A DNA stretch of 63,534 bases, counting the filler, from Collodictyon triciliatum (taxonomy: Eukaryota): assembly GCA_043381765.1 (NCBI GenBank). It is 8 parts of 8 records of this genome, joined end to end, with 100 filler letters (N's around TTAATTAATTAA, not from the genome) between each part and the next. Parts side by side here need not be neighbours in the genome. Positions count along the whole stretch, not along the records: positions 8,750 to 17,388 come from JBHJMP010003338.1; 7 more parts are not named here. One strand, 5' to 3'. Within the stretch, counting starts at the first letter, position 1. Every line of letters starts with the position of its first letter. This document shows, in pieces, positions 8,650 to 60,128 of this stretch. A program made the translations under genes and the position numbers. Below the pieces are notes generated by a model that saw nothing but the letters and a program-made list of their open reading frames with translations, was not told where the DNA came from and searched no databases.

Positions 8650-8749
8650 NNNNNNNNNNNNNNNNNNNNNNNNNNNNNNNNNNNNNNNNNNNNTTAATTA
8701 ATTAANNNNNNNNNNNNNNNNNNNNNNNNNNNNNNNNNNNNNNNNNNNN
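8650..8749. other. Artificial contig spacer
   Basis: N44-TTAATTAATTAA-N44, stops in all six frames; seven identical copies in the window. Confidence 0.99.
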
Positions 8750-9205
8750 TCTGCGGTCTGGAAGGAAGTGCGTAAACTATGCAGAGAAGTTGTCTTTGCA
8801 CTCGACCTAGTGCCTTTCTAACTCAATGCGAACTTCTCCTGTCCACCATCCTTTCAACACCTTGCGCCTCCAAAGTAGTATTCCCATCCTCTTCCACTCC
8901 CCTCTAAACATAATCAAGCCCGCTACTTTCCCTCTCTCAAGGATTTCACCACAAGTCCTATCCTAAAAGGAATCCCTGGGCCTCTTATCAAGCCCCAGGG
9001 TCATTACCTCCTTTTTTCTTTTCCTCTTCATCCTATTTTCTCTCCTTTATCTTTTCCCCATCTCTATACTCCTCTGATGGCACATCCACCATCACTTTCT
9101 CTTTTTACCTCGGAATACTTGCTTGGTGGTTGGAAAAAAAATTGTTGGCACGGGCGCCAACAGCTAAGTCTGTCGTGATTAAAATAATAAAATAATAATA
9201 ATAAA
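8750..9205 (+). mobile_element. Possible 3' end of a non-LTR retroelement
   Basis: Contig starts inside an open frame ending ..EVVFALDLVPF*, then a pyrimidine-rich UTR, a perfect hairpin TGTTGGC-acgggc-GCCAACA (9143-9162) and an (AAT)-rich tail. No RT motif seen. Confidence 0.35.
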
Positions 9206-9496
9206 TCAGCCACTTAATATTGGGTTTTGTACTGTCTCATTTGGAGTTCCTCTATTTTTTCTCGTAACGATGTGATTTCCTCGACTTTTCTACTTGATAA
9301 GCTTTTTTTTTAAGATTTATTGGGTAAAAAAAGAAGAAAAAAAGAGGACATATCATTCTCTTTGGAAATATTTCCATGGTTCTTTTTGCCATTATCACCC
9401 ATACACCTTTTCTCGTTAATAAGAGATTATGGCAATTAATTACTGTTTTAAGGTGAGAGCAAATAAGAGGAAAAAGAGGAAAATTTCAAGGAAGAA

Positions 9497-12400
9497 TTAT
9501 AGAGAGGACGATGAACCCTCTCTGAAGGTCGTCATTTCCATATCATTTTCATCTATCACTCTGTTTCTTATGCGAATGATTATTGATGATTTCATGATAG
9601 TCTCAAATATAGGGTGAATAAATCTCTCTATTTTTGTAAAGAAAGAGATGATTATTGCAGGGCCAGCTTTGGACAGAGAAACTATTGCAATCAACCCATT
9701 AGAGAAGGAGACAAGCAGAACGAGAAAATATTTGGTATATGTACTTATGTCTGAATAACGAAACAGAAGGCTTGTCATTAACGTAAAATAGAGTACTGAT
9801 GTTGACCAAATCTGATATTTCTTGAGGACATTTGACATGAACGGCTCGAAATATATCGACGACGCAATACTCAATATCAAAATCCAAGAGCCAAAGTAAA
9901 TTTGTAAAGCTGGAGAGAACAATACGCTAACAATAACAACAAGAAGCTTTTGCATCATCATAACTAATTCCCAGTAATAGCATCTTTCGTTGAACCCATC
10001 CATCAAAAATCGAAACAAGTTGTACGTATTAGATCCTGGATCAAGCAATAACGACCTTTTGGAAAACATATATAAAGCAAGAAATATCGGGCCACCAAAG
10101 CAGTACAGAACAACATAAACTATGCAAATATTTTTCCAAAGCAAATAAGTTGCATCATTGCACATGACTGACATATCAGCCTCCAAGTAATTTTCTTCAC
10201 CTAACTGTACACATCCGAATATGCTTGATATTGATGATGTTACTGTTGGGTGGATAAAAATCAAAATAACTAGCATATGAAATATGAATTCTTCATTGAA
10301 CTTATAAAATGTAAAATCCTTCTTATGAATTTGACATGTTTTTAATCTCCACAGAGTCTTAAATAACACTATTACTGAAACAATGACCACCAAAGCAAAC
10401 GGAGTAATCATCGCAAGAAAGACTTTGTCGTATACGTCCCAATCGAACTGACATTCCGTTGCATAATTGTCTATCGACAGAGAGAATGACAAAAAACTTG
10501 GAATTTTCATTACTGATATAATAGTCGCACTCCAGTCAACATCAAAGTTGGCTAGATAGGATAGAATCTGAAAATGTGTCGACAGCGTCTTCAAAATTTG
10601 AATATTCCCAGTTTTTGGTTGTCTTGACTGCTCTATCATGTAAAAAACAAACGAAAAGGGAAGCATAATTGCCAAAATAACCAGAAAACCATTTACACCT
10701 TTTTGCGAGCATTTTATGCAGTAATTTCCACCTATTTTCCCGTAACCTTCATTGCAGATACTGCACAAAACCCCGGTGTATCCCTCGGAACATGTGTTGT
10801 TATCTCCTCCCCTGCAAGATTCTTCGTTAAGACATTTGTATGTAATTAATTCACCTTTTGAACTCGGAGCTCGCCAATAACCTGGAGCTATCTTGATTTT
10901 GCTACTTCCATCACACGTAAATCCACTTGGACAGTCTTTGCACAGATTTGATTTAGAATCTAAGTATGTCGATGAAAAGCACAAACAATCATTCATGGTT
11001 GTAGACCCAATTATACCCCCATTCCACTCACTTGGGCACAAAGTGCAGTTTGTGTTAAATCCTACACTGAAGCTACCAGTTGAGCATGGTGCGCACGTTT
11101 TTTGAGCCAAATCATAGGAACCGCCTAAACAAACATCCCATATGTTGATGGTCCAATCACTGCCTCCCGAAACTATTTTTGACCCATCAAGCGAAGCGAT
11201 GACACTTTTAACACCGCCAATATGACCAGTCAATGTGCGAATCAAAGCTCCATCAGAAAGTTTCCAAATTTTGATGGTAGAATCGTTGCTTGCAGATATA
11301 ATTTTTGAACCATCAAAAGTAACAGAAACGCTCAAAACACAACTAGAATGACCGAATAATATTCGAATCAAAGTTCCATCATATATATTCCAAACTATGA
11401 TTGTAGCATCCGTGCTTCCAGACACAACGTTGTTACCATTAGGAGTAACAGCAACGGTTAAAACACCGCCTCTATGACCAAGCAAGGTACGATTCGAAGT
11501 TTCATCAGAAATATCCCAAATCTTGATACTTTCGTCAAGACTTCCAGACACGATTATCAAATCATCAGGAGTAACAGTAACACTAGTAACATAAGCAGCA
11601 TGACCACTTAATTTGCTAATAGAACTTAGATCAGAAAGATTCCAGATTAGTATTGTTCCACAGTCGCTTCCAGAAACAATTTTTGAGCCATCAGATGTAA
11701 CAGCAACACTAGTAACAACAGTTGTGTGATTAGTCAACGTGAGAATCAAAGTTCCATCAGAAAGATTCCAGATTCTTATTGTTCTATCATTGCTTCCAGA
11801 GATGATATTTGAGCCGTCATATGTAACAGTAACACTAGTAACCCCATCAGTATGATTAGTCAAAATGAGATTCAAACTTCCATCAGAAAGATTCCAGATT
11901 CTTATTGTTTTATCATCGCTTCCAGAGACTATTTTTGAGCCGTCAGGAGTAACTGCGACACTGTTAACATAATTGATATGACCAGTCAAATCTATATTCA
12001 AAGTTCCATTGAGAATATTCCAGATTTTTATTGTGCTATCATGGCTTCCAGAGACTATTTTTGAGCCGTCAGGAGTAACTGCGACACTGTTAACATAATT
12101 GGTATGACCAGTCAAATCTATATTCAAAGTTCCATTGAGAATATTCCAGATTTTTATTGTGCTATCAAAGCTTCCAGAGACAATTTTTGAGCCGTCAGAT
12201 GTAACAACAACACTAGTAACCCAATCAGTATGACCAGTCAATGTGTGAATCAAAGTTCCATTAGAAAGTTTCCAGATTTTTATTGTGCTATCGTCGCTTC
12301 CAGAGACGATATTTGAACCATCAGGAGTAATGGTAACACTTCGAATCCAATCGGTATGACCAGTCAACGTGCGAATCAAAGTTCCATTAGAAATATTCCA

Positions 12401-13103
12401 TATTTTGATTCCTAAGTCATGAAAGCTACCTCCGGAAACAATACTTGAGCTATCAGGAGAAACACAGACACTGTAAACACCAGTATCTTGATCAGGATTA
12501 TCAGTCAATATGAGAATCAAAGTTCCATTAGAAGCATTCCAAAGTCTGATTGTTCTATCAATACTTCCAGATACAATTTTCGAGCCATCAGGAGTGACTA
12601 TGACACTGTTAACACAATCGGTATGACCAGTCAACGTGCGAATCAAAGCTCCATTAGAAAGATTCCAAATTTTTATTGTACTATCAGCGCTTCCAGATAC
12701 AATTTTCGAGCCATCAGGAGTGATTATGACACTGTTAACACAATCGGTATGACCAGTCAACGTGCGAATCAAAGCTCCGTTAGAAAGATTCCAAATTTTT
12801 ATTGTACTATCAGCGCTTCCAGAGACGATATTTGAACCATTAGGAGTGATAGATACGCAGCGTACATCTATAGGACCTGATAAACTACGAATCAGAAAAT
12901 CATATTGCCCTTCAACTTGATGCACTTGACGAAATAAGATCAAACCTATTTTTTTTAATCATTTAAAAAAAGAAAGATAGGCTTGAATCGAATAAAGGAA
13001 ACCCAAAATTAGAAATAAAGCTATTGATATATTTCTAGAAAATAAGATATATTCGATCACTTAAGAGCGAAGCAGCCGCAATTCCCATAGAGGCCAATCT
13101 CAT
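9497..13103 (-). CDS. Signal peptide + 14 WD40 repeats + Cys-rich (TNFR/GCC-like) stalk + about 9-TM membrane domain
   Basis: 1148-aa ORF 9497-12943 plus a short upstream exon (MRLASMGIAAASLL.., ATG about 13103) that splices in frame. 14 GH..V.SV..TPDGS.IVSGS.D.TI.IWN repeats; CAPCSTGSFS, C.DCPSGFTC..PGYWR, CSEGYTGVLCSICNEGY; hydrophobic segments with the FLMDGF..YYWE...QK..PF motif. Confidence 0.88.
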
Positions 13104-16074
13104 TCTAAGAATCTAATTATGTATAGATTTTAACGATGCTAATTCTATAATTAATGGTGTATGATATAACAGTAACTTGAGTAAATTGCTACAATACTTT
13201 TTTAATACAAAAATCGATCGGATAATTGATTCATAAATAGTCGAAATATATTCAAGAGGAAAAATATCCATAGGAAAAACCCTTGCAAACATATAAAAAA
13301 AAAATTCACTGTTTACACTAAATTTCATACTCTCACTTTTTTGATTACTCCCTAGTCAGTGTAACCAGTTTAAGAAAAATATTTCGAAATTCATAAGTTT
13401 TGAAAATTTAATTATTAACTGTGTAATTATATAGGTCACTCAGTGCTTAATTAGAAACAGGATTGGACATGATTGGAGATGGGGGGGGGGGTATATATTT
13501 GGGGTAGGTAAATAAACAGAACATAGATATGTTTATACTTTATTAAATATGTGAAATATAAAGACCATGTTATCAAAATTTTAGGGGATTTCCCCAAATT
13601 GAGAATATCATAAGCATTTTGATGAAATATTTCTAATAATTGAAGCGATATTTATGATCAGAAACGGAATATATTGACATTCATTTGAAGCAAAAAATAC
13701 AACCAATTTCATTTTTATTATACCCCATAATAATACATATAAAATATGGTGTATATTTGAAGTATATCCATAAAAAAAAAACTTTCTCTTCTGATGTTGT
13801 GGTAGCCATTTACCTTTTTTTTTTTTAAAAAAAAAAGTGAGTGTAAGTATAATAGGTGCAATTAATGATAATTTACAATCGAATAAAAAAAATTAAACCC
13901 AACCCATGTAGAATCGAAAGAATTACATAAGGTACTTGGGTCAGTATATGAATGGAGAGTGCAAAGCAATAATAGAGATGATTTCGATCAAATAATTGGG
14001 CGTTTGTGTAGGTTATTTATTACGAAATTACATATGATAAAAAGCACCATATAGTGTAGCGTATCAATAAAATTGAATTATTGAATGTGATTCTTAGTTT
14101 GAGCTGTATTTGAGCACAATACAAGCGAATCAATAAGTGATATCTGATTGAAATTTATACAGCAGACATTATCATGCATAATCATTCGTTAATCTGGCTA
14201 ATGTAATGATTGCATTCATCAATTTAATATCTTGTTGCAAATTTTATAAGAAAGCGCAAAAAAAAATAAATAAATAAATTAAAAACATAGCTGAATAGAA
14301 GGGCCCGAGCCTAACTGAAGCTAAATAGTATTTGACATCAAGGTAATATCACTAATAATTTTTATCAGAGAAAAAGTAAATATAGAACGAAATGTCTCGA
14401 AACCAGTAACCTTTTATTTTGATCAAACTTTTAATGAATTTTCTAATATGTTTACATATTCATATTTCATTTTAAGAAACTAAAATATGGTAATATTGGC
14501 CTAGATATACCATAGAGCTCCATAGCTGAAGACAAATGTTTGCATGTTTCACAGGTAATCTTTATACACTATGTGTTTCATAACAAAGAACTAGGGAGAA
14601 AATATTTTTTCGAATATAAGTTTTCATAAAATTTATCACATCCTATGCATTTATTCATAGGGATTTATATTGGTAATCACAAGTGAAGGATTTAAGAGTT
14701 AATGAAAAAAATTTAGCCTCATACGTTTCACAAATATCGATAGTAATTAAAATGTCATCAGTTCGGTGATATTATGATCGGAAATATATGAAATGATGCA
14801 TAATCCACTTATTAAAACATAACATTAATTCCTGTGGTGTGCTTCATTTTTATCTGTTGTATTTTTATCATCCGAAAATTAGTTTCTTTTAGTTAAAACA
14901 TTACATAGAGTTCACTTTAACAATACCAATAAAATCAATAATACCAATACTAATACTAATGCTTTAAGTTGATGTTGAAAAATCGATGGATAGGAAAATT
15001 ATTGTGTTCTGTTGATTTTTAACATCTGACATTTGCAACTTTTAATTTTATACATAGATCTACTATTATAGGGGATATTAGAGGCACTTATCTCAACTTG
15101 AAAGATCATTCAAATTATAAAGTTATAATTGTAACTGATGCACACATAAATACCATGACATTGCAGATTTGAATATGCGCCATACTATTACGAATTTAAT
15201 TACTTTTAGATTATGATACATAAAATAAAACGAACAAAAGCAAATTGATTTTATAGAGATGAATATTTTAACCAAAAGTCTAGACATACTGATATTATTT
15301 TTATTATATTAACCTAGTTGAAGCTTTCTGAGTTATGTTGGTCATTTTCTTTTAAAGTCCGTGTGGATAAATTTATTCAAAAATTCTTAAACTCAATGAA
15401 TATAAATGACTAATTCAGAGTAACACCATGATTTTCTTTAAATCTACAGAGTGATGGAAAATGGTTATCACTCTCTTGAAATCAAAAACAGTAACACGAT
15501 AAAATTAGCTTTTGGACTGTAAATCAACATGTTATGATAACAAAACGTCACTTTTGCTGGTACAAGTTATAATCATATCAATCGATTTTTATTCTGTTAT
15601 CATTAACATATTTTTATATAAATGATGACATTTTCTTTTCTTGCCTGTATTTACAGATTAAAACTCTACCCTCGACTAATAATCTCATGAGATATAATAT
15701 ATTCAATATTACATAATATTCGAAGAATGTTATAATGCATAATCATAATAGAGTTTTTGGAATTGTTATAAAAATATATTATGTATCAATTCCATAATAT
15801 GCTCGGGATATGATCCCACGTAAAAAAATACCTTTTTAAAAGGGCATTTCCCTATATGAAAGAAAATTTGATTTATGTTAGGTCACAAGATGGATTCAAT
15901 TTTTAAGATTGTGTCATTATGCATTACATAATAAATAAGAAATTGATGTATAAGCACGACATAAACATTACCAGGTAAGTAGTCACAGAATTATAAATTT
16001 TGTAGTAAAATACGTCTTTTATCTTCGTATTGATAAAAAGAAAAAAAGGAAGGTTAAATGAAGAAAGAAGGGGA

Positions 16075-16315
16075 CGAGATGACCACATATGGTTATCCAT
16101 TCGGGGGTGTTTGGCCTACGATTGACCCCAGGGTATTGGTCCGAGTAGTTGTAGCTCTAAATGAGCAGTAATTACTCTCGACCCCGCCCTATGCGTAGGA
16201 ATGAGCTCCTGTTCAGTTTCTGTACCAAGCTGACCTACACCCGAATCCGACTCGCGTCATTGCTTTCAACCAAGATGCCAATAATTGCGCCGGACTGTAA
16301 ATAATAATAATAATG

Positions 16316-16412
<97 letters not shown>
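16075..16412 (+). mobile_element. GC-richer structured segment ending in an (AAT)n tail; possible SINE or truncated LINE
   Basis: About 220-nt GC-richer island in AT-rich DNA, several complementary stems, running directly into (AAT)n at 16299-16412. Confidence 0.3.
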
Positions 16413-16413
<1 letters not shown>

Positions 16414-17213
16414 TAAAAAAAACCTTCCTCTCCTTGAATCGAATAAAAGAATGAAATCATTTTGAGACACAATTCACCGATAATGGTCAAAATTGAATCA
16501 AAAATAGGTATTGGATGCCTAAGTTCATGATTTTTTTTTAAGAAATATCGAATAATCAATCAGATTTTTCGACTCTGCGTAGTACTATTTTTTGGAGAAT
16601 ATGCTTACACATTTCGCTTCCATAGTTAAACCTGTTTCATGGAATCTTTCGGTATCCCCATTTGTTGCATCTCTTTCAACACAAACAGCTGATTGCATGA
16701 CCATTGTTCGGCAAAATTGGAAATTTTCTTTAAAAAAAAAAAAGGGACCGTGTATATCAATTTTTTTTTCCTAATTATAAATTTTACATGGGATCAATAG
16801 ATAAAATATTGATAAACGAGTATCTCAAGTATCGTAGTATGAAATTATGCCCAGATCAATAGTTTCTCAAGCTAGTTCATCCAATAAGAATATTTTCCCT
16901 GTGTCGAATTTGATAGCTAGCTTATATTTGATTTCAAAATAACAATATATGGCCATACTATAAAAGTACTCGTGCTCTTCATCGGGAATGAGAAAAAAAC
17001 AGAATGATGAAAAGATAAATGAATCAGAGCAACTAATACTGAGAATCATATTCATACCTACCTTGCCATCCGTGGGTTGATGCCTTGAGCCTGCACCTTA
17101 AGCCTTTCAACACTTTCTCCCAGTAGCCTCTTGTTCCCTCGCTCCCCGTGGGTCGGTAGCTTGAGCTCGCTCCGTCTCTTTTATTCTTCTTTTCATTCCC
17201 CTTTGTGTTATAA

Positions 17214-17388
17214 GTATTATTAGTATTATTAGTATTATTAGTATTATTATTAGTAGTATTATTAGTAGTATTATTAGTAGTATTATTAGTAGTATTATTA
17301 GTATTATTATTAGTATTATTATTAGTATTATTATTAGTATTATTATTAGTATTATTATTAGTATTATTATTAGTATTATTATTAGTAT
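17214..17388. repeat. (TAGTATTAT/TAGTATTATTAT)n at contig end
   Basis: Seen directly. Confidence 0.95.
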
Positions 17389-17488
17389 NNNNNNNNNNNN
17401 NNNNNNNNNNNNNNNNNNNNNNNNNNNNNNNNTTAATTAATTAANNNNNNNNNNNNNNNNNNNNNNNNNNNNNNNNNNNNNNNNNNNN
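17389..17488. other. Artificial contig spacer
   Basis: Same linker. Confidence 0.99.
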
Positions 17489-21710: not shown

Positions 21711-24700
21711 GATGCAACCGCAGAGGAATCCAAAAGCACCGTTATCTGGCGAACCTACTGGACCGTGGCTTGCTGTTAGTTTCTCTATTGAACTTTATTT
21801 CCTTTTATCATAATTTTGTTTCGACGTGAAAGCAGTTCCTCATTTCCAATTTTTTTGTTGCGTGAGATGGTTACTCTCCTTCGTTTCATTTTCCTAATTT
21901 TTTAAAAAAAAAATTTTTTTTTCCTTTTTACTAACGCGTCTTTCCTTTCTGCTTTTCGTTTTAATACAGTGTTTGGTAAACGCCGATGCTCTTGACCGAA
22001 GGAATTATGAACTATTGGTCAAACACCTAACTGAGCAGGTTTTCATTTTGTATGAATATTCTGTTTCATTTTCTTAACTCTATGTATTATTCGTTAACCT
22101 ATTTTTTCTTTTGTTTTATACATCAAAGTGACGAGTTTAAATTGACAAGACTCTGATTTTCAATTAGTTTTTAAATGTGTTTTTTTTTCTTGTTTTTTAT
22201 AATAGGTCCCCGAACTCTTGAGGCAATGTTCCCAGAGACCAGTAACTTTTTCATGAACTCTTGGCATTTGATATTTCAAGTCACTTTGAGCATTTTCATC
22301 TTGCTTTACTATCATTCTCATGATTTTTGTTCTTCATTATTCAGTCACCATTGTCCATTCTGGATCAGAGCTGCAGCATCGCTGATATAGAAATGGTGAT
22401 TTAAATCGTGAAATGAATATTATTTTTAGAATAGTGATGCGTGTTTTCTAAGTTTGTTATTTCTATGATAGCAGATTTAGTCTAATTTCATCAACTAGGA
22501 AAGTTGATATCATACTGTGGAAAATTAAAATATGGAGTTTTCTCACTATTACCGAGTTTGACTCTTGATAATATAATTTTTGAACACATTTTAATTCTTA
22601 CTAACAAATTAACACTTAAAAAAAGGTTCAGTTTTTGATTGAAAAATGCCTCATGGTTTATGCTTCGAAGAGACACACCCTTTACGCTCTTCAGACATTG
22701 TGTAAAATTGACATGGGATACACTGACTTGAGTTAATAAATTCCAAATCATAAAAAGATTTTTTTTGAAAATTCATGGGATAATATTCTCATGTACAATC
22801 ATTCAAGTTTTCTTGCTTTTCTCCTTTATTTATTGATGCCTTTTCCCTTGAATCGAATAGAAGATTTTTTTTTAACACTTGCTTCTTTCATTCGTCGCAA
22901 AGTATGGGACAAAATAGAGATCCAGAATCCATCATTCTTCAAGGCGTATATATACAAGTGCAAACTTAGGCATGTACTTTCCTTTACATGAAATTAGTAT
23001 TTTACAGATAAAAATTGAATACATGCAAATTAAAATGGTAAAAATGTAATTGTAAGACCTCATAGATCTATTAAATGAAAAGAACGAGTTTCAAAAATAT
23101 CAGCTTATGCTTCTCCTCGTTATTAGGGATCAAATTTTAGTGTATAACCATCTTTACAATTGTCAAGATTATCTCTTACAAGAGCGGGAATCTTTGGAAT
23201 CTGCAAAGTCTTTACAATCATCACAATTAAATATTCAATTAAATCACTCAGCAGTGCTCAAAATACAACAACAGCTGCAAATAAATCATTATATGAGAGC
23301 TCATGGAGGTGCGCAGTCGCTTGCACATATGTTTCCACCAACCATTCAGAATCAAGGATATGGACCACCAAACCAGTATATGGGTAACCCTTACCAAAAT
23401 ATGCATCATTCCCAGTACCTTGTTGGATCCGGTAAGTCTTGTTTAATGTCTCTTTTTTCTTAGTGACTATATGCCCACAAACAAATGGGTTTTATTTTTC
23501 AAAAAGATGTACCACATAATTTTTTTATCGAAAAGCGTACAATAAATTAATACTTCATCGATTTCTGTGTCTAGTATATCCTCCCCAAACACCTTCAAGC
23601 TTGCCTTTCGGGCATGTAAGTTGAATATTTCTTTTACTTTTACTTTTACTTTTTCTTTTTCTTTTTCCTTTTTCCTTTTCCTTTTTCCTTTTTCCTTTTT
23701 CCTTTTTCCTTTTTCCTTTTTCCTTTTTCCTTTTTCCTTTTTCTTTTCTTTTCTTTTTCTTTTTCTTTTTCTTTTTCTTTTACTTTTTCTTTTACTTTTA
23801 CTTTTACTTTTTCTTTTTTCTTTTTCTTTTCTTTTTCCTTTTTTCTTTTTTCTTTTCTTTTTCTTTTTCTTTTTCTTTTTCTTCATGGCTTGTAAAATTA
23901 AAAAATTGTGACTTCACTATGAATACATTATGATGTTTGGTTATGTCATAGCCACATTTTAGTGGACATACGAGCGCAAATAGGCCACCTTCAGTCGGAC
24001 AATTAAATGAAGGCTTCAACCAACAGACCACCCCAGGACCGGTAAATTATATGTATGGGTCTCGCAGCTCGAGTTCGGGAATATCAGATAGTTCCACTAC
24101 AGGGTCAACACAACTGCTTGCCTCCAATTTGGAGACTGCTCTAGGATTTGGGAGCCGACCAAGCAGTGCTCATTTAAGCCCTGCATCGCACTCACCTGCA
24201 TCAAGCTACTCGCGGTCACCTGAGAATAGCCGACCCCCGGTTTCCACGATGACAAAAAATTGGCTCCAGTTCCATCACGTACCTGAAACGACTCACTCTC
24301 AAGGATATTATTTACCGTTGGGGCAGACACCACTGCATATATCTCCGACCCAACGGCCACATTCCTTAGAACCCTATCGAGAATCGAACGACAGCATCGG
24401 CTCACTGGGACAAAGTCACTCGGAAGATGACAGCAATGCAGGAAGTCGCCGAAATTCGTCGAGTTCACAAAGTTCCACGAGTTCCAATAGCTACCCTGAC
24501 GCACGACTCATACACGCGACGGTGCCTATGTTTTTACCCTTCCCACAGTCGGTTGGACCCACTGCAGCGGTACATGAGCCTCCAAAGCCACCCGTGTCAA
24601 TAGAATTAACTGAGATGGATGATGAGGACGATTATGGCGGTGTTCGGGGAATTAGTTTTGCAAACGCTTTTGATTCGGATGGCTTAGATAATAACCCTCA

Positions 24701-25069: not shown

Positions 25070-25169
25070 NNNNNNNNNNNNNNNNNNNNNNNNNNNNNNN
25101 NNNNNNNNNNNNNTTAATTAATTAANNNNNNNNNNNNNNNNNNNNNNNNNNNNNNNNNNNNNNNNNNNN
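25070..25169. other. Artificial contig spacer
   Basis: Same linker. Confidence 0.99.
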
Positions 25170-29894: not shown

Positions 29895-31174
29895 CTACCA
29901 TGCACTGCGCAGATTGGCCACGGTCCTGAGCTTGGCGTAGACCTTGTTTGGGGGCGAGCCTGTGTGCAGGGCAGAAGCAGAGGGTGAGAGATGGTGGGGA
30001 GCGGCGATGGCGGATGGGCCGGCCTACCGAGGATGAGAGAGACGACGGCGTCCTTGGCCACCTGGATGTTTGCGTACGACCCGAGAACGTGGACGCGGCT
30101 GGAGAGGCAGAGGCAGAGGCCGACATGGGTTGGAGGCGGTCAGTACAGTGCGTGGGTGGGCGGGGCAGGGATTTTGGCGATGGAGATACAGACTTGTCGG
30201 CCAGGACAATGCGGGTCTTTGTCGTGTTTTCGATCGTGTACTTTGTCTTGCCGTCCTTGCCGGCTATGCGGCCGATGGCGCGGGAGAGATGGTCGCCCTT
30301 CAGCATGCGCACTGCGTGGGGCGCGGGTGATGCGTGTCAGGCAAGTGGGGAAAGAAGGAGGAGGAGGGGCTGGAAATAAAAAGAAAAAAGAAAAAAGAAA
30401 AAAGAAAAAAGAAAAAAGAAAAAAGAAAAAAAAAAAGAAAAAAGAAAAAAGAAAAAAGAAAAAAGAAAAAGAAAAAAGAAAAAAGAAAAAAGAAAAAAAA
30501 GGAGCCGGCAGCAGACGCCAAAGACCAGGCACCCACCGTCCTCCACCTCAAACGAGTCGATGTAGAGATCGTCCAGCCGCAGCAGCGCAAGCGCATCGTT
30601 GACGTCGAAGCCGAGGGAAAACGCCTTGACAAAGTCCATCGCCTTCTGCAGTGCGCCGTGATCCTCCGTGGCCGCGCACGTCTTGATCTCGACACTCCGC
30701 GACTTTGTGTTGAAGCGGATCTGCAGCTTCATGTGCTCGACGACCGGCCCGTAGATCTTGAGCCAGTTCTGCTTCAGCGGTGTGTAGCGGTGCGGCGGGA
30801 TCGGCACCTTTACGAACTGGCTTTTCCCCTTCTGCACAGTCCGTGTGGCTTAGCCAGCTTCTCGAAGAAAAGAAAAAAGCCAAAGGAAAAAAGAAAAAAA
30901 AAGAAAGAAAGAATAAGCTGAGAAAGACAACCCCTGGGGCTGAGATGGACGCTGGCGCAAAGGTCGGTCGCTCCATCGCTGTCTCCTGCAGATCCTCCTC
31001 CGTGGCCAGCGCAGCAGTTGCCTCAGTCAGCGCAGGCGGCAGCCGCTCTCCGCGCAGCACCTTCGACTCAACGACCTGCTCTTCCACTTCCATCTCCTGC
31101 TTCTCTTCTTCTCTGCTTCGCTTGGCCTCTGCTTGCAAGGCGCCTTCTGTTGGGCTTGTGTTAGAGGCCTCCAT
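29895..31174 (-). CDS. PNO1: RNA-binding KH protein PNO1/Dim2 (40S biogenesis), 5 exons
   Basis: VPIPPHRYTPLKQNWLKIYGPVVEHMKLQIRFN..DALALLRLDDLYIDSFEVED|VRMLKGDHLSRAIGRIAGKDGKTKYTIENTTKTRIVLAD|..LGSYANIQVAKDAVVSLILG|SPPNKVYAKLRTVA. Confidence 0.96.
30378..30500. repeat. (AAAAAAG)n inside a PNO1 intron
   Basis: Seen directly. Confidence 0.95.
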
Positions 31175-33822: not shown

Positions 33823-33922
33823 NNNNNNNNNNNNNNNNNNNNNNNNNNNNNNNNNNNNNNNNNNNNTTAATTAATTAANNNNNNNNNNNNNNNNNNNNNN
33901 NNNNNNNNNNNNNNNNNNNNNN
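33823..33922. other. Artificial contig spacer
   Basis: Same linker. Confidence 0.99.
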
Positions 33923-37549: not shown

Positions 37550-40500
37550 TTATGCCGCCGAAGCTTTCTCTCTCCACTGCATCGCTTTATTGGTATCCCT
37601 TGCGACACCCCATCCATTTTCGTAGCATTCAGCAAGAGCTAAAATAGCTTCTTTACTTTTGAGCTCTTCCTCCTCTTCCATTTCCACGATTCCTTTCAAT
37701 GAATCGAATGCCTCCCTCGTGCCTTGCTGTGCAAGGTGTTTCAGCTTTTCAAATTTTTGTGCTTTTCCAAGCCATTCTGAGGTTTTCTCGATGTCTCTAT
37801 CAACGCCCCATCCGTTCTCATAACATTCAGCAACTATAGCCACAGCCTGAGGGTATTTATAGCTTCCATTCCACAACCTTATCTCAGCCACTTCAATCAG
37901 AACATCGAATGCTTCCCTCACCCCTTGATGTGCAAGGTGTTTCAGCTTTTCAAATTTTTGTGCTTTTCCAAGCCATTCTGAGGTTTTCTCGATGTCTCTA
38001 TCAACGCCCCATCCATTCTCATAACATTCAGCAACTATAGCCACAGCATGCAGATATTTATGCGTGTCTGCATCTTTGATATCAGCCACCGTTACGAGTG
38101 CTTCAAATGCCTCCTTGGACTTTTCTTGTGCTAGTTGCCTCAGTTTCTCAATTTTCCTGGCCTTTCCGAGCCATTCAATAGCTCGTCCCATATCTATATC
38201 AACTCCCCATCCATTCTCGTAGCATTCAGCAACAATAACCACAGCCTGGGGATATTTGTATTCCTCATATTCTTCTATCCCAGCCACCTCTATCAGAATA
38301 TTGAGAGCCTCTCTTGAACCTGCTTGCACTAATTTTTTAAGCTTGTCAAATTTTTCAGCCCTCCCGTACCACTTTGCCGCTTTATTAGTACTCTTCTCAA
38401 CACCCCATCCATTCTCATAGCATTCAGCCATCATATGAGCCTGGAACTTAGTAAAATGGCGTTGCTCGCAGTAGCTTATAAATTCCACATCAAAAGAGGC
38501 AGAACCTTCTTGCAGTAACAGTTTCTTACTCATCGCACTCAATCCTATGACATTCCTGTTCGAAATATGCGCTCCCTCGAACTTTCTTGAACCAAATATT
38601 CGAACCACACTGGTATGAACAATTTTATTTGTATCAATTGTCCTCCTTTCATCGATGGTTTCACAAAGAACCGGAATGTCGACACCCAAATTTTCTGTCT
38701 TGGAAACAGACCTATATCGCCCATACTCCGTTTCTGACTTTTGTAACCTGTATTCTTGGGTTTCAATACTTAATTCCAATATACGTACTAAATGATCAGA
38801 GCATCCATATACCAGCCAACTTTCGCCATTTGGTCCTTGAATACTGCAAACACTATTGACTGGCTCTGTATGCCCTTCTATTGTTTTGATTTGGTTTCCT
38901 GTGACTACATCCCAAATTTGTATTGTTTTATCATGACTTCCAGAGGCCAACCAATTTTCTCCATTCGGTCCTTGGATGCAGCAAATACCGTTGACATTCC
39001 ATGTGTGACCTTCTAATTTTTTGATTGGGTTTCCTGTGGCAACATCCCAAATACGTATTGTATTATCATGACTTCCAGAGGCCAACCAATTTTCTCCATT
39101 CGGTCCTTGGATGCAGCAAAGACTGTTGATAGCATCTGTATGTCCTTCTAATGTTTTGATTTGGTTTCCTGTAGCCACATCTAAAATCCGTAATTCATTG
39201 CCATTTGTTCCGTACGCCAGCCAATTTTCACCATTCGGACCTTGGATGCTGCAAACGCTGTTGATGTACTGGTCATAGATTTCAATTATTTTGGATCGAC
39301 ACCCGATAGATATATACCAAATACGTATTGTATTATCGCCACTTCCAGAAACCAACCATTTCTCGCCATTCGGACCTTGAATACTGCAAACACTATTCAC
39401 AGCATCTGTATGCCCTTCTAGTTTTCTTATTTGACTGCCTGTGGCTACGTCCCAAATACATATTGTATTGTCGCCACTTCCAGAAGCCAACCACTTTTCA
39501 CCATCCGGTCCTTGAATGCTGCAAACACTATTCACAGCATCTGTATGCCCTTCTAATTTTCTTATTTGACTGCCTGTGGCTACATCCCAGATACGTATTG
39601 TTTTATCATCACTTCCAGAAGTCAGCCACTTTTTACCATTCGGCCCTTGAACACTGCAAACACTAGAGACTCGTCTCTCATGACCGTTTGGTAATTTAAT
39701 TTGATTATTGGTAGAGATATACCAAATTCCTATTGTGTTATCATGACTTCCAGAGGCCAGCCAATTTTCACCATTCGGTCCTTGAATATTGCAAATACTG
39801 TTGACATTCCATGTATGACCTTCGAGTATTTTGATTTGGTTTCCAGTAACTACATCCCAAATGCATATTGTTTTATCATCGCTTCCAGAAGCCAGCCACT
39901 TTTCACCATTTGCCCCTTTAACACCACAAAGGCTACTGACAGCATCCTTATGCCTTTCTAATGTTTTGATTTGGTTTCCTGTGGTAATATCCCAAATACG
40001 TATCATTTTATCATCACTTCCAGAAACCAGCCAATTTTCACCGTTCGGTCCTTGAATACTGCAAACACTCATAATGGCTTCTGAATGATTTCCTAGTATT
40101 TTGATTTGGTTTCCCGAGGCTAAATCCCAAATGCGTATTGTATTGTCAAGACTTCCAGAAGCCAACCAGTTTTCACCGTTCGGTCCTTCAATGTTGCAAA
40201 TGGCCCTAATAGCGTCTTCGTGTCCTTCTAGTGTTTTGATTTGGTTTCCTGTGGCTACATCCCAAATACGTATTGTTTTATCTCCACTACCAGAAGCCAG
40301 CCATTTTTCGCCATTCGGTCCTTGAATACTACAAACACTCCAAACACCACTTGTGTGACCTTCTAATGTTTTGATTCGGTTTCCAGCTGCTACATCCCAA
40401 ATACATATTGTATTATCACTACTTCCGGAAACCAGCCAATTTTCACCGTTCAGTCCTTGAATACTGCAAACACTATTAACAGAATATGTGTGCCCTTCCA

Positions 40501-42544
40501 ATATTTCGATTGGGTTTCCAGTAGCTACATCCCAGATACGTATTGTTTTATCGTCGCTTCCAGAAGCCAACCAGTTTTCACCATTCGGTCCTTGAATGCT
40601 GCAAACACTCTTGACATAACCTGCATGTCCCAAAAACAAAGGCAAGCGACCAAAATTAACGCCTTTCATATTTGCGTCATCAAAAACACAGTTTGAAATA
40701 CACGCATTATAGAACAAAACATCCTCCAAGTTGGCACCTGTGAAGTCAGCACCATCAGCAACAGACTGTGACATATCAGCATTCGGAATGTGTATCCCTC
40801 TGAAATCCATGCCACTGAATGTAACGTCAGCATAATTCAGAATTGTGATAGCGTTTGATGCAGCTTGCGCTTTGGTTGCATCTGTCTTCGATTGCTCGAT
40901 GATCGAAAAGAGATTGTCTTTGTAGGTTTTGTCTTTGTTCACTTTTTCACTCAGGTTGAGCAGAATGGCAGGCTCAAGCTTTTTATCTAGAACATTCGTC
41001 TTCACTTTCGATTTCAACACAGAATGAACAGCATTTAAAAGCTTGAAGCTTGGTGATTTTGCATCAAATTCTCCATGTTTTGAATTCGCGGGTTCAGAGG
41101 ACGTTGCAACATTTTGAGCTTCCGTTGATGGTTCGGCAGAATCTTTATTTTCCGCATCGGAACTATTGATTTCATCTTTGATGTACTCAGCAGCAAAGAA
41201 TTCGTAGAGCGATTTGTGAAAGAACTCATATGTTGTGGCGCTAGATTTCTTAATAGGTGCACATCGCAATACGAAGACAGAGTAAGTTCGCTCACCATCA
41301 ATCATATGGTCTGGATTAGGATGGAAAAACTCATCGTATTCATGCTTTTTAGCCTTCCCCTCAACTTTGTCGTACTCCAAAGCAAGATGGCCTTTCTGGA
41401 ACATGACTTCTGCAATATCTTTGCACTTCACCCAAAGCAATCTTTCCAAATCTTCAGGCATTTTCTGTTTCAATGAAAAATTTTCTTCAAGCTTCTCTCT
41501 TTCGCGTTCGAACCATCTTCTCGAAAACCTGTCCAGAAAATCTGTTCTCATGATTTTTTCATTCTCTTTCGATTTCGACTCATCTCTTTCCTTCAGTATG
41601 GACGGCAGGGTGGTGGCTGCCATGAAAATCATAAACGGAGTGACAGTCAATTCGTCCAGCTCCTTTATTTTCTTCAATTCTTCCTCGTACTTTTCACCAT
41701 TTTCCCACCCTTCAATGGGATTTCTCGTAGCATACTTGTTGAAGTAATCAAGCCTTTGCTTAGTTTCAAAAGGTCTCAGATATATTTCATCCAGAGAGTA
41801 TCCATGACTAGCTTTGGGTGCAAAAAGCGATTGATACTGAGATTTCTTATCCAAAAACTGCTTGCGGCATCCAATGACAAACTTGCAGTTGGGCCATTCT
41901 TCAAGCTTATTTGATTTATAAAAGGATGTACCACTATCTTCAATCTCATCGTAACCATCCAGGAAAATGATGAATTTCATCTTTTTCAATTCTTTTATTT
42001 GTTCGACTCGAAAATCAGAGTCTGGGATGTAGAAGCTGTTTTTACTCTCAGAAAGAAGCAGTTCTTCGATGGCATTTTCTCTGGGCTTTTCCAATGAAGT
42101 GAGAGCAGCATACAAAGGAATATGTGACTTTCCATATTCATACTTTTCCCAAAGCAATCGCACAATAAACTGCTGTAACAATGATTTCCCAGAACCAGAA
42201 TCGCCAAGTATCAGCAGCACTTTTTCTTTTGTAGATGTAAAGAAATTCAGGATGTATTCTTGGGCACCAAAAACTTTTCCTTTCTCAACAATTCTTTCGG
42301 CTTGGCCAGGAATATACGTATTAAAACGACTATTGAATTCTTCATTTCGAATGGTCTCCTCCTTGATATTCTCGATGATGTCGTGAATCGTTCTTTCGTC
42401 TTTACCAGCCTTTTCAAAAAGTGCAGTTGGTAATGTTGACTCTTTTGGCTTATATTCTGCCATTTCTTGCTTTTTTGATTCCACAAATCGGTTAATAACC
42501 TCACTTTTCAGCCATTTTTCATGACGTGTGATATGCTCCATCAA
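37550..42544 (-). CDS. STAND/NACHT NTPase + pentapeptide repeats + 14 WD40 + Sel1-like repeats (NWD-type NLR-like), intronless, probably 5'-truncated
   Basis: Walker A LLILGDSGSGKS; Walker B IIFLDGYDEI; LRPF, TPFMI and FFHKSLYEFFAA motifs; ADMSQSVADGADFTGANLEDVLF pentapeptides; 14 x 45-aa WD40; 5 x AECYENGWGV. The frame stays open to the contig edge. Confidence 0.93.
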   Translation of the reverse strand: MMEHITRHEKWLKSEVINRFVESKKQEMAEYKPKESTLPTALFEKAGKDERTIHDIIENIKEETIRNEEFNSRFNTYIPGQAERIVEKGKVFGAQEYILNFFTSTKEKVLLILGDSGSGKSLLQQFIVRLLWEKYEYGKSHIPLYAALTSLEKPRENAIEELLLSESKNSFYIPDSDFRVEQIKELKKMKFIIFLDGYDEIEDSGTSFYKSNKLEEWPNCKFVIGCRKQFLDKKSQYQSLFAPKASHGYSLDEIYLRPFETKQRLDYFNKYATRNPIEGWENGEKYEEELKKIKELDELTVTPFMIFMAATTLPSILKERDESKSKENEKIMRTDFLDRFSRRWFEREREKLEENFSLKQKMPEDLERLLWVKCKDIAEVMFQKGHLALEYDKVEGKAKKHEYDEFFHPNPDHMIDGERTYSVFVLRCAPIKKSSATTYEFFHKSLYEFFAAEYIKDEINSSDAENKDSAEPSTEAQNVATSSEPANSKHGEFDAKSPSFKLLNAVHSVLKSKVKTNVLDKKLEPAILLNLSEKVNKDKTYKDNLFSIIEQSKTDATKAQAASNAITILNYADVTFSGMDFRGIHIPNADMSQSVADGADFTGANLEDVLFYNACISNCVFDDANMKGVNFGRLPLFLGHAGYVKSVCSIQGPNGENWLASGSDDKTIRIWDVATGNPIEILEGHTYSVNSVCSIQGLNGENWLVSGSSDNTICIWDVAAGNRIKTLEGHTSGVWSVCSIQGPNGEKWLASGSGDKTIRIWDVATGNQIKTLEGHEDAIRAICNIEGPNGENWLASGSLDNTIRIWDLASGNQIKILGNHSEAIMSVCSIQGPNGENWLVSGSDDKMIRIWDITTGNQIKTLERHKDAVSSLCGVKGANGEKWLASGSDDKTICIWDVVTGNQIKILEGHTWNVNSICNIQGPNGENWLASGSHDNTIGIWYISTNNQIKLPNGHERRVSSVCSVQGPNGKKWLTSGSDDKTIRIWDVATGSQIRKLEGHTDAVNSVCSIQGPDGEKWLASGSGDNTICIWDVATGSQIRKLEGHTDAVNSVCSIQGPNGEKWLVSGSGDNTIRIWYISIGCRSKIIEIYDQYINSVCSIQGPNGENWLAYGTNGNELRILDVATGNQIKTLEGHTDAINSLCCIQGPNGENWLASGSHDNTIRIWDVATGNPIKKLEGHTWNVNGICCIQGPNGENWLASGSHDKTIQIWDVVTGNQIKTIEGHTEPVNSVCSIQGPNGESWLVYGCSDHLVRILELSIETQEYRLQKSETEYGRYRSVSKTENLGVDIPVLCETIDERRTIDTNKIVHTSVVRIFGSRKFEGAHISNRNVIGLSAMSKKLLLQEGSASFDVEFISYCEQRHFTKFQAHMMAECYENGWGVEKSTNKAAKWYGRAEKFDKLKKLVQAGSREALNILIEVAGIEEYEEYKYPQAVVIVAECYENGWGVDIDMGRAIEWLGKARKIEKLRQLAQEKSKEAFEALVTVADIKDADTHKYLHAVAIVAECYENGWGVDRDIEKTSEWLGKAQKFEKLKHLAHQGVREAFDVLIEVAEIRLWNGSYKYPQAVAIVAECYENGWGVDRDIEKTSEWLGKAQKFEKLKHLAQQGTREAFDSLKGIVEMEEEEELKSKEAILALAECYENGWGVARDTNKAMQWREKASAA

Positions 42545-42559
42545 TTCGCGGACTTTTTG

Positions 42560-42659
42560 NNNNNNNNNNNNNNNNNNNNNNNNNNNNNNNNNNNNNNNNN
42601 NNNTTAATTAATTAANNNNNNNNNNNNNNNNNNNNNNNNNNNNNNNNNNNNNNNNNNNN
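42560..42659. other. Artificial contig spacer
   Basis: Same linker. Confidence 0.99.
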
Positions 42660-54656: not shown

Positions 54657-56297
54657 GGTTCTACAGGAGGCAATCAGGGCACAAGAGCACAGTCTCCCAA
54701 CACCACATTTGTTTATGAGGTCCCAACCTCAAAGACGGAAATAATATCGAGCGATGAGAGAAAGTTGGCTCAATTAATTGATGAAAGCGATGAAACAAAC
54801 AAATTGATTGATGAAATATACACTCCAGATGCTCTAAGCGAAAAATATCCAACGAATCCACTTGCAAGTCTTTCCTTCTTCCTCAGAATCGAGTATATTC
54901 TAAGTAATGCCGAGAAAATACAAAAACTACTAGCAAAGGCAGTTGAGACGAATCCTCTATTCAAAAAATTACGCGAAAATGTTACTTATATTGAGGTATT
55001 CAGAGAAGCACTAATCTATTTTGATGCTAATCCTAAGAAAGCTCAGATTCTATTTGTGCATTGTATCTTAAAAGATAAATCTTTCAGTCCTGCCTTTGTG
55101 GCACTCAGAGAGCTATACTATGCTTATCCCGAGCTCATCATTTTTCCAAGCGAGAGACCACAGTGCGACAAAATCCTGGAGCAAATTGAACACATCGAAC
55201 CGGAGGTGCTGAAGAAAGATATCAAGACCCTAGAGGCAGAAAAGTCTTATCCCATCGCCAATTACTTACTGTCGCTTTATTATTCATGGGGATGGGGTAC
55301 AGAGAGAGACTACGACAAGGCATACAAACTCCTCGAGGGACTCGACACAAGAATTCAGAAATACAAATCCTTTGGAATCGGATGTATCTATAAAAGAGGA
55401 TACACCGCCAGAAACATGAAGCCTAATGCTTTAAGCGCATTCACTGAATTTTTACAGGCAGCCCAGATGGAACATTGTGCATCCATATTGAACGTTGCAA
55501 ACACTTATATGTTTGGAGTCGGGGTTGAAAAAAGTGAAGAGGAATCATATAAATGGCTAAAAAATGCGGCAGTAAAAGGAGAGCCGGTCTCGCAGTATAC
55601 TTGTGCTCTGGTCGTGCAAAAGTCAAATGATGAAGAATATCAAAAATTAATCAAACAATCGTCTCGTAAGGGGTGTTCTCTTGCCCAATACAAGCGAGCT
55701 ACCGAGTTACTCGAAAGAGGACAAACTACTTCATCGATATTAGAACTGGACCGATGCATTGATTGGTTGGAGTTGGCATCGACACAAGGTCACCAACGCG
55801 CATCCCAGGTACTCCGCATACTGCAACTGAAGAAGGCAATTGAGAGCCAGTCTAAAATGGTGAGCGGTTTCAATGAGCCGAATGAAAACACGACGGCTGT
55901 GGAGATATTAGAAAAGCACCGCAAAGAGCTGTTTGTACTTCTTGACAGCGTGAAGGATGACAGCTTCATGGCAAAGTATGAAGTGGGGTGTGCGTACGCC
56001 CTTGGTCTTGGGACGGCAACTGACCCGAAGAAAGCCTTTCAGATTTTCGAATCCCTGTCGAGTGGCAGATTCAGTGATGCTCATATCCAATTAGGGCTCT
56101 GCTATGAGTTTGGAGAAGGAACACTCAAAGACGAATCCAAAGCACTTGAATTATACACACTTTCTTATGAAGACCGTCCCAGTGTCTCCGGACAGCACAT
56201 CAAGCGCGTCGTAAACACACTCAAATCAAAAAAACTGCACTCAGAGCAGGTCTCGGATATCCAAGCGCGATACCCAGCCATATTCAACGGCGCTTAA
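54657..56297 (+). CDS. Sel1-like repeat region; probably the last exon of the upstream pseudokinase gene
   Basis: YSWGWGTERDYDKAY, YMFGVGVEKSEEESYKW, YALGLGTATDPKKAF, LGLCYEFGEGTLKDESKA. No ATG near the 5' end of the open frame; acceptor CGCAG at 54656. Confidence 0.85.
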   Translation, partial: GSTGGNQGTRAQSPNTTFVYEVPTSKTEIISSDERKLAQLIDESDETNKLIDEIYTPDALSEKYPTNPLASLSFFLRIEYILSNAEKIQKLLAKAVETNPLFKKLRENVTYIEVFREALIYFDANPKKAQILFVHCILKDKSFSPAFVALRELYYAYPELIIFPSERPQCDKILEQIEHIEPEVLKKDIKTLEAEKSYPIANYLLSLYYSWGWGTERDYDKAYKLLEGLDTRIQKYKSFGIGCIYKRGYTARNMKPNALSAFTEFLQAAQMEHCASILNVANTYMFGVGVEKSEEESYKWLKNAAVKGEPVSQYTCALVVQKSNDEEYQKLIKQSSRKGCSLAQYKRATELLERGQTTSSILELDRCIDWLELASTQGHQRASQVLRILQLKKAIESQSKMVSGFNEPNENTTAVEILEKHRKELFVLLDSVKDDSFMAKYEVGCAYALGLGTATDPKKAFQIFESLSSGRFSDAHIQLGLCYEFGEGTLKDESKALELYTLSYEDRPSVSGQHIKRVVNTLKSKKLHSEQVSDIQARYPAIFNGA

Positions 56298-60028: not shown

Positions 60029-60128
60029 NNNNNNNNNNNNNNNNNNNNNNNNNNNNNNNNNNNNNNNNNNNNTTAATTAATTAANNNNNNNNNNNNNNNN
60101 NNNNNNNNNNNNNNNNNNNNNNNNNNNN
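60029..60128. other. Artificial contig spacer
   Basis: Same linker. Confidence 0.99.

Follow-up and report, generated by a model that had tools for sequence, protein, structure and literature searches.

We describe a gene from Collodictyon triciliatum, on the minus strand at positions 9497-13103 of an analysed stretch of 63,534 nucleotides (the window, to which all coordinates refer), whose predicted protein carries 14 WD40 repeats, a cysteine-rich stalk and about nine transmembrane (TM) helices, in that order. Canonical WD40 propellers are textbook intracellular scaffolds. In this protein the WD40 array lies on the stalk's side of the membrane, the C-terminal half belongs to a membrane-protein family that carries other ectodomains, and the repeats are most similar to those of NTPase-WD40 proteins. 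Taken together, these results lead us to lean towards an intact gene in which a WD40 double propeller is probably held outside the cytosol on the chassis of this family. An earlier note on the same DNA had listed a hydrophobic N-terminus on a small upstream exon, 14 WD40 repeats, a Cys stalk and about nine TM segments, with none between the N-terminus and the stalk, and each of these elements was recovered where it had been reported.

The C-terminal half belongs to a widespread membrane-protein family

The C-terminal 541 residues were used on their own as a phmmer query against a database of 1.84 billion cluster representatives. The search returned 7559 representatives at E≤1e-3; of these, 2332 pass a threshold of 1e-10 and 131 one of 1e-30. 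The best E values reached down to 6e-75 over residues 9-472 of the 541, and the alignments at E≤1e-30 span about 9-480. The module is nearly always C-terminal, in proteins of about 900 to 6000 aa, and those members that bear a name are from green algae or were found as transcripts of Rigifila ramosa. In an alignment of 63 sequences the 2 invariant and 29 nearly invariant columns are all kept in the Collodictyon protein, which also shows the family motifs, that is the stalk Cys, GYWR, GY.G.LC..C..GYG, the loop Cys pair and W-E / R-K after TM5.

What stands in front of the module varies. Among 85 relatives Pfam assigned TIG domains to about 35, beta-helix/PMP to 8, RCC1-like propellers to 6, FG-GAP to 2, and LRR, OpuAC and F5/8C to 1 each, in agreement with the statement of the earlier note that this stalk and membrane module is common with other ectodomains. 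The RCC1-like propellers (up to 6 stretches) precede the same stalk and TM module in the relatives P0099, P0101, P0130, P0092, P0039 and P0064, and the N-terminus of P0099 is clearly apolar. Judged from these sequences, a second propeller of nuclear or cytosolic type is thus recruited to the chassis and, since the chassis accepts RCC1-type "intracellular" propellers, WD40 would be a new passenger rather than a new principle.

The first stalk cysteine (C620) follows the last WD40 strand by one residue and is the first of 16 Cys at spliced positions 620-760. Run against Pfam, the C-terminal 541 residues gave matches below the cut-off to DUF7630 (25.6 bits vs 27) and Ephrin_rec_like (20.7 vs 23.1), and also one to TNFR_ELAPOR1. 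A profile of the family was compared with solved domains, and its stalk region matched Chlamydomonas Mst1 (E 1.4e-11), EphB2 (7.3e-11), EphA2 (2.1e-8) and DR5 (1.9e-6). In Foldseek the nearest structures to the stalk were the TNFR proteins 4-1BB and DR5, which matched weakly (E about 0.08-0.2). A reading of the stalk as a zinc finger was rejected, its sole hint being zf-Tbcl_FmdE at E 0.14 against profile matches at E 1e-11 to disulfide domains.

An AlphaFold2 (AF2) model of the C-terminal part, built with 62 relatives, has a mean predicted local distance difference test score (pLDDT) of 90.0 and a predicted template modelling score (pTM) of 0.83. It shows a beta-rich stalk and then nine long helices, the fourth and fifth of which flank a beta hairpin. 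Foldseek of this model against the PDB gave 0 matches at E≤0.001 and none for the helical bundle, and neither Foldseek nor the family profile found a solved homologue of the membrane module in the PDB. A second copy of the stalk and TM module was found neither by tblastn nor by the family hidden Markov model (HMM) over the window.

Matches to PF06011, the "TRP" family, occur below the cut-off in 5 of the 85 relatives (best 27.9 bits vs 28.5), and UniProt names one relative "TRP C-terminal domain-containing". The Collodictyon protein itself has no PF06011 match at E≤10. We would regard a possible channel-like output of the membrane module as a lead and not as a result.

The WD40 array is on the side of the stalk

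Four independent lines of sequence evidence agree in supporting an extracytosolic position of the array. The first is the match of the family profile, in its stalk region, to solved extracellular domains with disulfide bonds, given above. Secondly, just two columns of the 63-sequence alignment are invariant, and both are Cys that flank the TM4-TM5 hairpin loop (C304 and C321 of the C-terminal piece). The pair fits a disulfide in an extracytosolic loop. The loop is acidic and poor in K/R. In the AF2 model four helices, an even number, separate the stalk from the Cys loop. Thirdly, the loop that follows TM5 has a family mean of 4.7 K+R and the tail one of 9.7, compared with 1.7 for the two Cys-bearing loops, where acidic residues are more numerous, and these positive-inside counts point to an N-out, C-in topology with nine spans. 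No hydrophobic segment lies between the array and the stalk, so that the propellers should be outside if the stalk is. The only hydrophobic window between the N-terminus and the stalk (residues 540-558, Kyte-Doolittle hydropathy 1.53) is a WD40 strand region.

The relatives provide the fourth line, through their extracellular-type ectodomains and apolar N-termini. A strongly apolar N-terminus is present in 66 of the 146 relatives that start with Met (out of 164), and many of those that have none are metagenomic fragments or mis-started models. The extracytosolic placement proposed in the earlier note is in this way supported in silico by the stalk homology, the invariant Cys pair and the positive-inside counts.

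The array is of the type found on NTPases

Pfam recognized 14 WD40 stretches (PF00400, E 7e-128), and at the DNA level the array is a 126-bp tandem repeat of 12.8 copies with 75% match. Its AF2 model, built with 30 relatives, has a pLDDT of 84.9 and 55 strands, giving about 14 four-stranded blades. Together with the nine post-stalk helices of the C-terminal model, this was the outcome of the structure prediction that the earlier note had proposed as a check. The top PDB match of the array model was 2ymu_A, a "highly repetitive propeller structure" (43% identity, TM-score 0.79/0.86, E 5.5e-56), followed by double propellers such as Aip1 and Pwp2; 1nr0, with "two seven-bladed beta-propeller domains", is also among the best matches. 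The reading as two propellers comes from the strand count and these PDB matches.

Long arrays make up the 120 best relatives of the WD40 part, and most of these arrays sit on fungal or bacterial NTPases of the NACHT, NB-ARC, NPHP3_N or nSTAND type. The highest identity was to a "NB-ARC domain-containing protein" of Reticulomyxa filosa (P0252), 50% by BLAST and 47% in the alignment. The R. filosa arrays share the framework PDGSKIVSGS with the one studied here, and their IWDVSSGE...LEGHS corresponds to IWNLSNGA...LTGHT in Collodictyon, where acidic residues are gone and an N-x-S sequon is gained. As judged by eye, the repeats differ most at the three or four residues that follow G-H and at the single residue that separates SGS from D, which we take to correspond to the hypervariable top-face positions of NACHT-WD40 proteins from fungi. 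These comparisons support an array of the NTPase (NLR)-associated WD40 type and, in silico, the NLR-type origin that had been suggested for it.

Another array of this kind is encoded elsewhere in the window. A large ORF on the minus strand (37598-42559), with its 5' end cut at a piece boundary, contains by eye a P-loop NTPase-like region, a pentapeptide-like segment, WD40 repeats and C-terminal Sel1-like repeats. It has 12 WD40 stretches with a period of roughly 46 aa, the 25 families listed by Pfam being all of WD type. Its layout is that of the R. filosa NB-ARC/WD40 proteins P0252 and P0196, and its array is 37.6% identical to the one studied here.

The array has the sequon density of an ectodomain

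There are 17 N-x-S/T sequons in the 595 aa of the array, or 2.86 per 100 aa. In 2000 shuffles of its residues 10.2±2.7 sequons were obtained, and 1% of the shuffles reached 17. All 120 WD40 relatives lie below this density (median 0.18 sequons per 100 aa, maximum 2.26), so that the density in the array is 16 times the median of its relatives. In the WD40 array of the NLR-like ORF described above, a single sequon occurs in 613 aa. We compared these values with the ectodomains of 47 members of the stalk and TM family whose TM1 is preceded by 250 aa or more, the other 15 of the 62 relatives being too short for inclusion. Their median was 1.75 sequons per 100 aa (range 0.8-3.26), with 0.47 in the TM parts. 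In sequon density the array therefore resembles the ectodomains of the family and not its own cytosolic relatives.

Gene model and N-terminus

The long open reading frame (ORF) extends from stop to stop over 12958..9497 on the minus strand (1153 aa). Its first 650 residues are without any Met and, because no Met precedes the stalk, the WD40 part would be translatable only from an upstream exon. An ATG at 13103, 145 bases 5' of the first codon of the long ORF, is the first one past an in-frame TAG that lies four codons upstream. The sole usable GT donor (13060), 43 nt past the ATG, avoids a downstream TAG, and the acceptor is the first AG (12946) after a pyrimidine/A-rich tract. Joining the two restores the long frame via a split Ser codon and gives a predicted spliced coding sequence of 3492 nt for a protein of 1163 aa (Table 1).

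Exon 1 stands out as a sharp island of GC content (0.49) between flanks of 0.15-0.30 on both sides. The predicted intron of 115 nt has a GC content of 0.23 (0.226) and could not be read through because of the in-frame stops inside it. The apolar N-terminal stretch (hydropathy 1.82 over residues 1-19) crosses the splice and includes the first four residues of exon 2. An apolar run spanning exons 1 and 2 is hard to explain unless the two exons are joined. Cleavage is possible after V-E-G at residue 27, by the -3/-1 rule applied by eye. The first WD40 repeat comes directly after the apolar N-terminus, and residues 1-24 are disordered in the AF2 model.

The gene is entirely inside one of the pieces that make up the window (8750-17388) and contains zero N between 9497 and 13103. 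Its 3.4-kb exon is open, and its GC content of 37% is similar in its two halves (0.376 and 0.365). Upstream of it, in 13.1-17.4 kb of the same piece, we found no protein-like ORF of at least 70 aa; these 4.3 kb are AT-rich with microsatellites.

Table 1. Positions of the predicted parts of the gene within the window
Feature	Position	Strand	Basis
Exon 1 (predicted, 43 nt): ATG, 14 codons and first base of the split Ser codon; starts the signal-peptide-like N-terminus	13061..13103	-	ATG, upstream TAG, GT donor, GC island
Intron (predicted), 115 nt, GT...AG, phase 1	12946..13060	-	GC content, in-frame stops
Exon 2, including stop codon 9497-9499; rest of the protein in one frame	9497..12945	-	ORF
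Last four residues of the apolar core and polar c-region; possible cleavage after V-E-G (residue 27)	12908..12945	-	Hydropathy; -3/-1 rule by eye
WD40 array of 14 repeats with 17 N-X-S/T sequons, about residues 28-619 after splicing; modelled as a pair of seven-bladed propellers	11132..12907	-	Pfam, model
Cys-rich stalk, residues 620-762: ephrin-receptor/TNFR-like module and DUF7630-like GY.G.LC..C..GYG module	10703..11131	-	Pfam, family profile, model
Nine-helix membrane module, residues 763-1117; family YYWE / R-K motif after TM5	9638..10702	-	Hydropathy, family alignment, model
TM4-TM5 loop: beta hairpin and two Cys invariant in the 63-sequence alignment (spliced C926, C943)	10160..10213	-	Alignment, model
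C-terminal tail of 46 aa, basic (7 K/R); cytosolic by prediction	9500..9637	-	Composition

A proposed WD40 ectodomain

The data above suggest the following model. The family plan comprises a signal peptide, a variable ectodomain, a TNFR/ephrin-like disulfide stalk and a module of roughly nine helices, and in this member of a widespread protist and algal family of membrane proteins 14 WD40 repeats of NTPase (NLR) type would have replaced the usual ectodomain. The apolar N-terminal segment would direct the chain into the endoplasmic reticulum (ER), where the array would fold as two seven-bladed propellers and, as the sequons suggest, could be N-glycosylated on the C-D loops. The disulfide stalk would hold the propellers above the membrane, and the nine-helix module, with its N-terminus outside and its C-terminus inside, may be a distant relative of the fungal PF06011 "TRP-like" proteins. 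A putative ligand could be bound by the variable top faces of the propellers, and the module would then either anchor them or relay a signal inwards. From the features of the gene and of its relatives we infer translation from exon 1, translocation, glycosylation, a location at the cell surface and a receptor function.

A bolder proposal, which we put forward tentatively and hold to be rather less probable than the placement of the propellers itself, is that an intracellular NLR-like hypervariable WD40 sensor was moved outside to become the glycosylated, ligand-binding head of a nine-helix and possibly TRP-like module. Recognition of an innate-immunity type would then have been switched to extracellular surveillance, and a canonical WD40 ectodomain of Gbeta type would be seen for the first time in a membrane protein of a eukaryote. 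If the array is exported, the WD40 fold would work in the secretory pathway without blade disulfides, and NLR-type repeat arrays would be re-usable for surface recognition. The gene also draws attention to a very large family of protist and algal membrane proteins that swap ectodomains freely, RCC1 propellers included. For the present the finding is of limited value, since it concerns a single gene, on a piece of 8.6 kb from a fragmented assembly.

Points against the model and alternative explanations

Several observations weigh against an exported WD40 ectodomain. Exon 1 and the splice are predictions, the protein encoded by the gene was absent from the results of all database searches made, and the c-region has no classic A-x-A site, with V-E-G being acceptable at most. 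The 6 Cys of the array (spliced 44-550) fall on non-equivalent blade positions, that is, there is no disulfide adaptation of the kind seen in CRINKLY4, a receptor discussed below. Constraint between repeats is moderate, with non-synonymous (pN) and synonymous (pS) differences of 0.266 and 0.443 and a ratio of 0.6 over 13 repeats (repeat 4 was excluded for an indel), pN being below pS in 75 of 78 pairs. Most of the sequons share the codons AAT CTT TCT across repeats and therefore trace to a few events spread by duplication, so that the enrichment statistic overstates their independence. Helix 2 (residues 794-813) is amphipathic, with a family mean hydropathy of 0.95, and for this reason the count of nine helices rests on the model and on the logic of Cys and charges, not on hydropathy alone.

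To these must be added that the combination was met once. Our own WD40 HMM recognized no repeat in the 164 relatives that share the module (best E 0.034, 7 bits), and Pfam assigned PF00400 to 0 of 85; these checks cover the best 150 of the 7559 phmmer matches, and rarer cases are therefore possible. A 214-aa query spanning the junction returned 477 candidates and no spanning match, the one match being to WD40 only at 20% coverage, which is weak evidence. No second protein with WD40 and the module was met among the best 150 of 7559 matches. The "new receptor class" of the earlier note has, on these data (0 of 164 relatives, no match across the junction), a single member and is not supported as a class.

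The main rival explanation is that domain shuffling made the gene in recent times, by recombination of a WD40 array from an NTPase-WD40 gene into a family member, and that the product, though intact in sequence, does not function or has ceased to do so, through little or no expression or through misfolding in the secretory pathway. We consider it rather unlikely. It would account for the occurrence of WD40 and the module together in one gene only, and it has ready material in the many NTPase-WD40 genes of the organism's relatives, which are possible donors, and in a tandem DNA array prone to unequal recombination. The weak constraint on the repeats (pN/pS 0.6) and the lack of blade disulfides point the same way. 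Such a product is more difficult to reconcile with 3.4 kb that are still open although the array is 47-50% identical to its nearest database relative, an identity too low for a fresh copy. Moreover, the C-terminal half keeps every conserved family position, the domain junctions are exact, and the pattern in which acidic residues of the donor-type repeat have been substituted gives rise to sequons at an ectodomain-like density.

The proposed topology would also suit a protein of the ER, the Golgi or a vacuole; its propellers would then be luminal, and it would have no role as a cell-surface receptor. The sub-threshold PF06011 matches in 5 of 85 relatives and the TRP name given to one of them by UniProt would fit this, as the PF06011 protein TrpR of Aspergillus is reported to be Golgi-localised (PMC8618638). 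We nonetheless think this location unlikely, the protein studied here being without a PF06011 match at E≤10 and the ectodomains of its family (TIG, FG-GAP, LRR, PMP-like beta-helix, F5/8C) being typical of cell surfaces.

An incorrect 5' model would either leave the array in the cytosol, as in fusions of WD40 arrays to ion channels, or turn it into an untranslated leader of a protein that starts at the first stalk Met. Exon 1 is indeed predicted, and cytosolic WD40 arrays on membrane proteins do exist (5 of 120 relatives, two of them with Ion_trans). Here, however, no TM segment lies between the array and the stalk, whose homologues are extracellular domains with disulfide bonds, and translation from the first Met would give a family member that lacks a signal peptide and half of its stalk. 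An open leader of 1.9 kb is unexpected by chance in an AT-rich genome, and the apolar start of exon 2 makes sense only within a signal sequence; we therefore regard both versions as improbable. Finally, a misjoin of a WD40 array to a membrane-protein gene during assembly, conceivable in a seemingly fragmented assembly seen here as pieces of about 8.7 kb and with repeat arrays that are difficult to assemble, is very improbable given the in-frame join at an exact domain boundary, the absence of N from the gene, the similar GC content of both halves and the coherent, predicted signal-peptide exon upstream of the array.

Other features of the window

The window consists of eight pieces of about 8.7 kb (one of about 7.6 kb; the last, of 3.4 kb, is cut by the window end). 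Each join is made of 44 N, TTAATTAATTAA and 44 N, and stops all six frames. The linkers are at 8650-8749, 17389-17488, 25070-25169, 33823-33922, 42560-42659, 51295-51394 and 60029-60128 and, because the window is concatenated, gene adjacency across them is no genomic evidence. GC content is strongly uneven between the pieces (0.27-0.52 in 2-kb windows).

On the plus strand, an ORF at 51577-54387 encodes N-terminal Gln/Pro-rich repeats and two domains that resemble kinases (2 stretches in Pfam kinase). Downstream of it, still on that piece, lies the gene of a Sel1-repeat protein at 54651-56297 (Pfam Sel1, E 7.8e-25). Another plus-strand ORF (46220-47686) encodes a Nidogen-like NIDO domain (E 1e-33), of extracellular type, and is LRR-like at its end; it probably extends past an intron. 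Long microsatellites and low-complexity tracts (ATT/ATA, AAT-rich, and AAG/GAA giving poly-K/E frames) occupy 16213-16473, 17033-17440, 23467-23933 and 30331-30921.

Comparison with known systems

Our literature search found nothing on DUF7630, on a WD40 ectodomain, on secreted WD40 or on WD40 with a signal peptide and ectodomain in protists, and the papers listed for WD40 and Reticulomyxa filosa, as judged from the listing, include none on this architecture. The closest comparison is with the family itself. In members such as Rigifila ramosa EP00004_P021075 and [Myrmecia] bisecta WJX72_005757 the C-terminal 541 aa align end to end, with the same order of stalk motifs and helices. The difference is in the ectodomain, which is TIG, RCC1, FG-GAP, beta-helix/PMP, LRR, OpuAC or F5/8C in the relatives and WD40 here.

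In fungal proteins with PF06011 (Flc1, Pkd2, TrpR) a multi-pass module likewise comes after an extracytosolic domain at the N-terminus, and their reported link to Ca2+ homeostasis (PMC9600462; PMC8618638) offers a candidate output for the module. The family described here differs from them in that its every match to PF06011 is below the curated cut-off, with none for the Collodictyon protein. The class C G-protein-coupled receptors (GPCRs) have the same layout of ectodomain, Cys-rich domain and helical bundle, and several relatives have NCD3G matches in their stalks, but these receptors have seven helices and not nine. Identity with class C GPCRs was rejected, as there was no Pfam 7tm match and the Foldseek comparisons with CaSR and other GPCRs (TM-score 0.10-0.20, E>0.1) were not meaningful.

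A long WD40 array and a multi-pass part also share one chain in fusions of the WD40-Ion_trans type (P0169, P0241 and three similar proteins). In contrast to the protein described here, these have no apolar N-terminus, no Cys-rich stalk and another TM family, and their array is expected to be cytosolic. They make up 5 of the 120 WD40 relatives (P0169, P0178, P0209, P0239 and P0241), each with a C-terminal TM cluster, and Pfam assigned Ion_trans in P0169 and P0241.

Outside the family the nearest described case is the plant receptor kinase CRINKLY4 (ACR4/PpCR4). Its ectodomain is described as an extracellular seven-bladed propeller, called "WD40" by the authors, that directly precedes a TNFR-like Cys-rich domain and then the membrane (bioRxiv 10.1101/2020.08.10.245050). 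CRINKLY4 has one propeller, nearest to BLIP-II and UVR8, with a disulfide per blade, a single TM segment and a kinase, whereas the Collodictyon protein has two canonical PF00400 propellers, no blade disulfides, nine helices and no kinase match. Membership of the CRINKLY4 receptor kinases was rejected on the missing kinase match, the nine helices and the non-equivalence of the Cys among blades. Together with several bacterial WD40 relatives that have signal-peptide-like or lipoprotein-like N-termini, this ectodomain qualifies the remark of the earlier note that WD40 propellers are almost always cytosolic.

The WD40 arrays of STAND/NLR proteins (P0252, fungal NACHT-WD40 proteins, 2ymu) share with the array described here the repeat framework and the high internal identity of the repeats. 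Identity with an NLR or STAND NTPase was considered and rejected, since NACHT and NB-ARC are absent from the Pfam matches shown and no protein-like ORF of 70 aa or more lies upstream on the same piece; the repeats begin at about residue 28, which leaves no room for an N-terminal NTPase. The Collodictyon protein thus differs from the STAND/NLR WD40 proteins in having neither an NTPase domain nor a pentapeptide linker, and in carrying a signal-peptide-like N-terminus ahead of an otherwise similar array.

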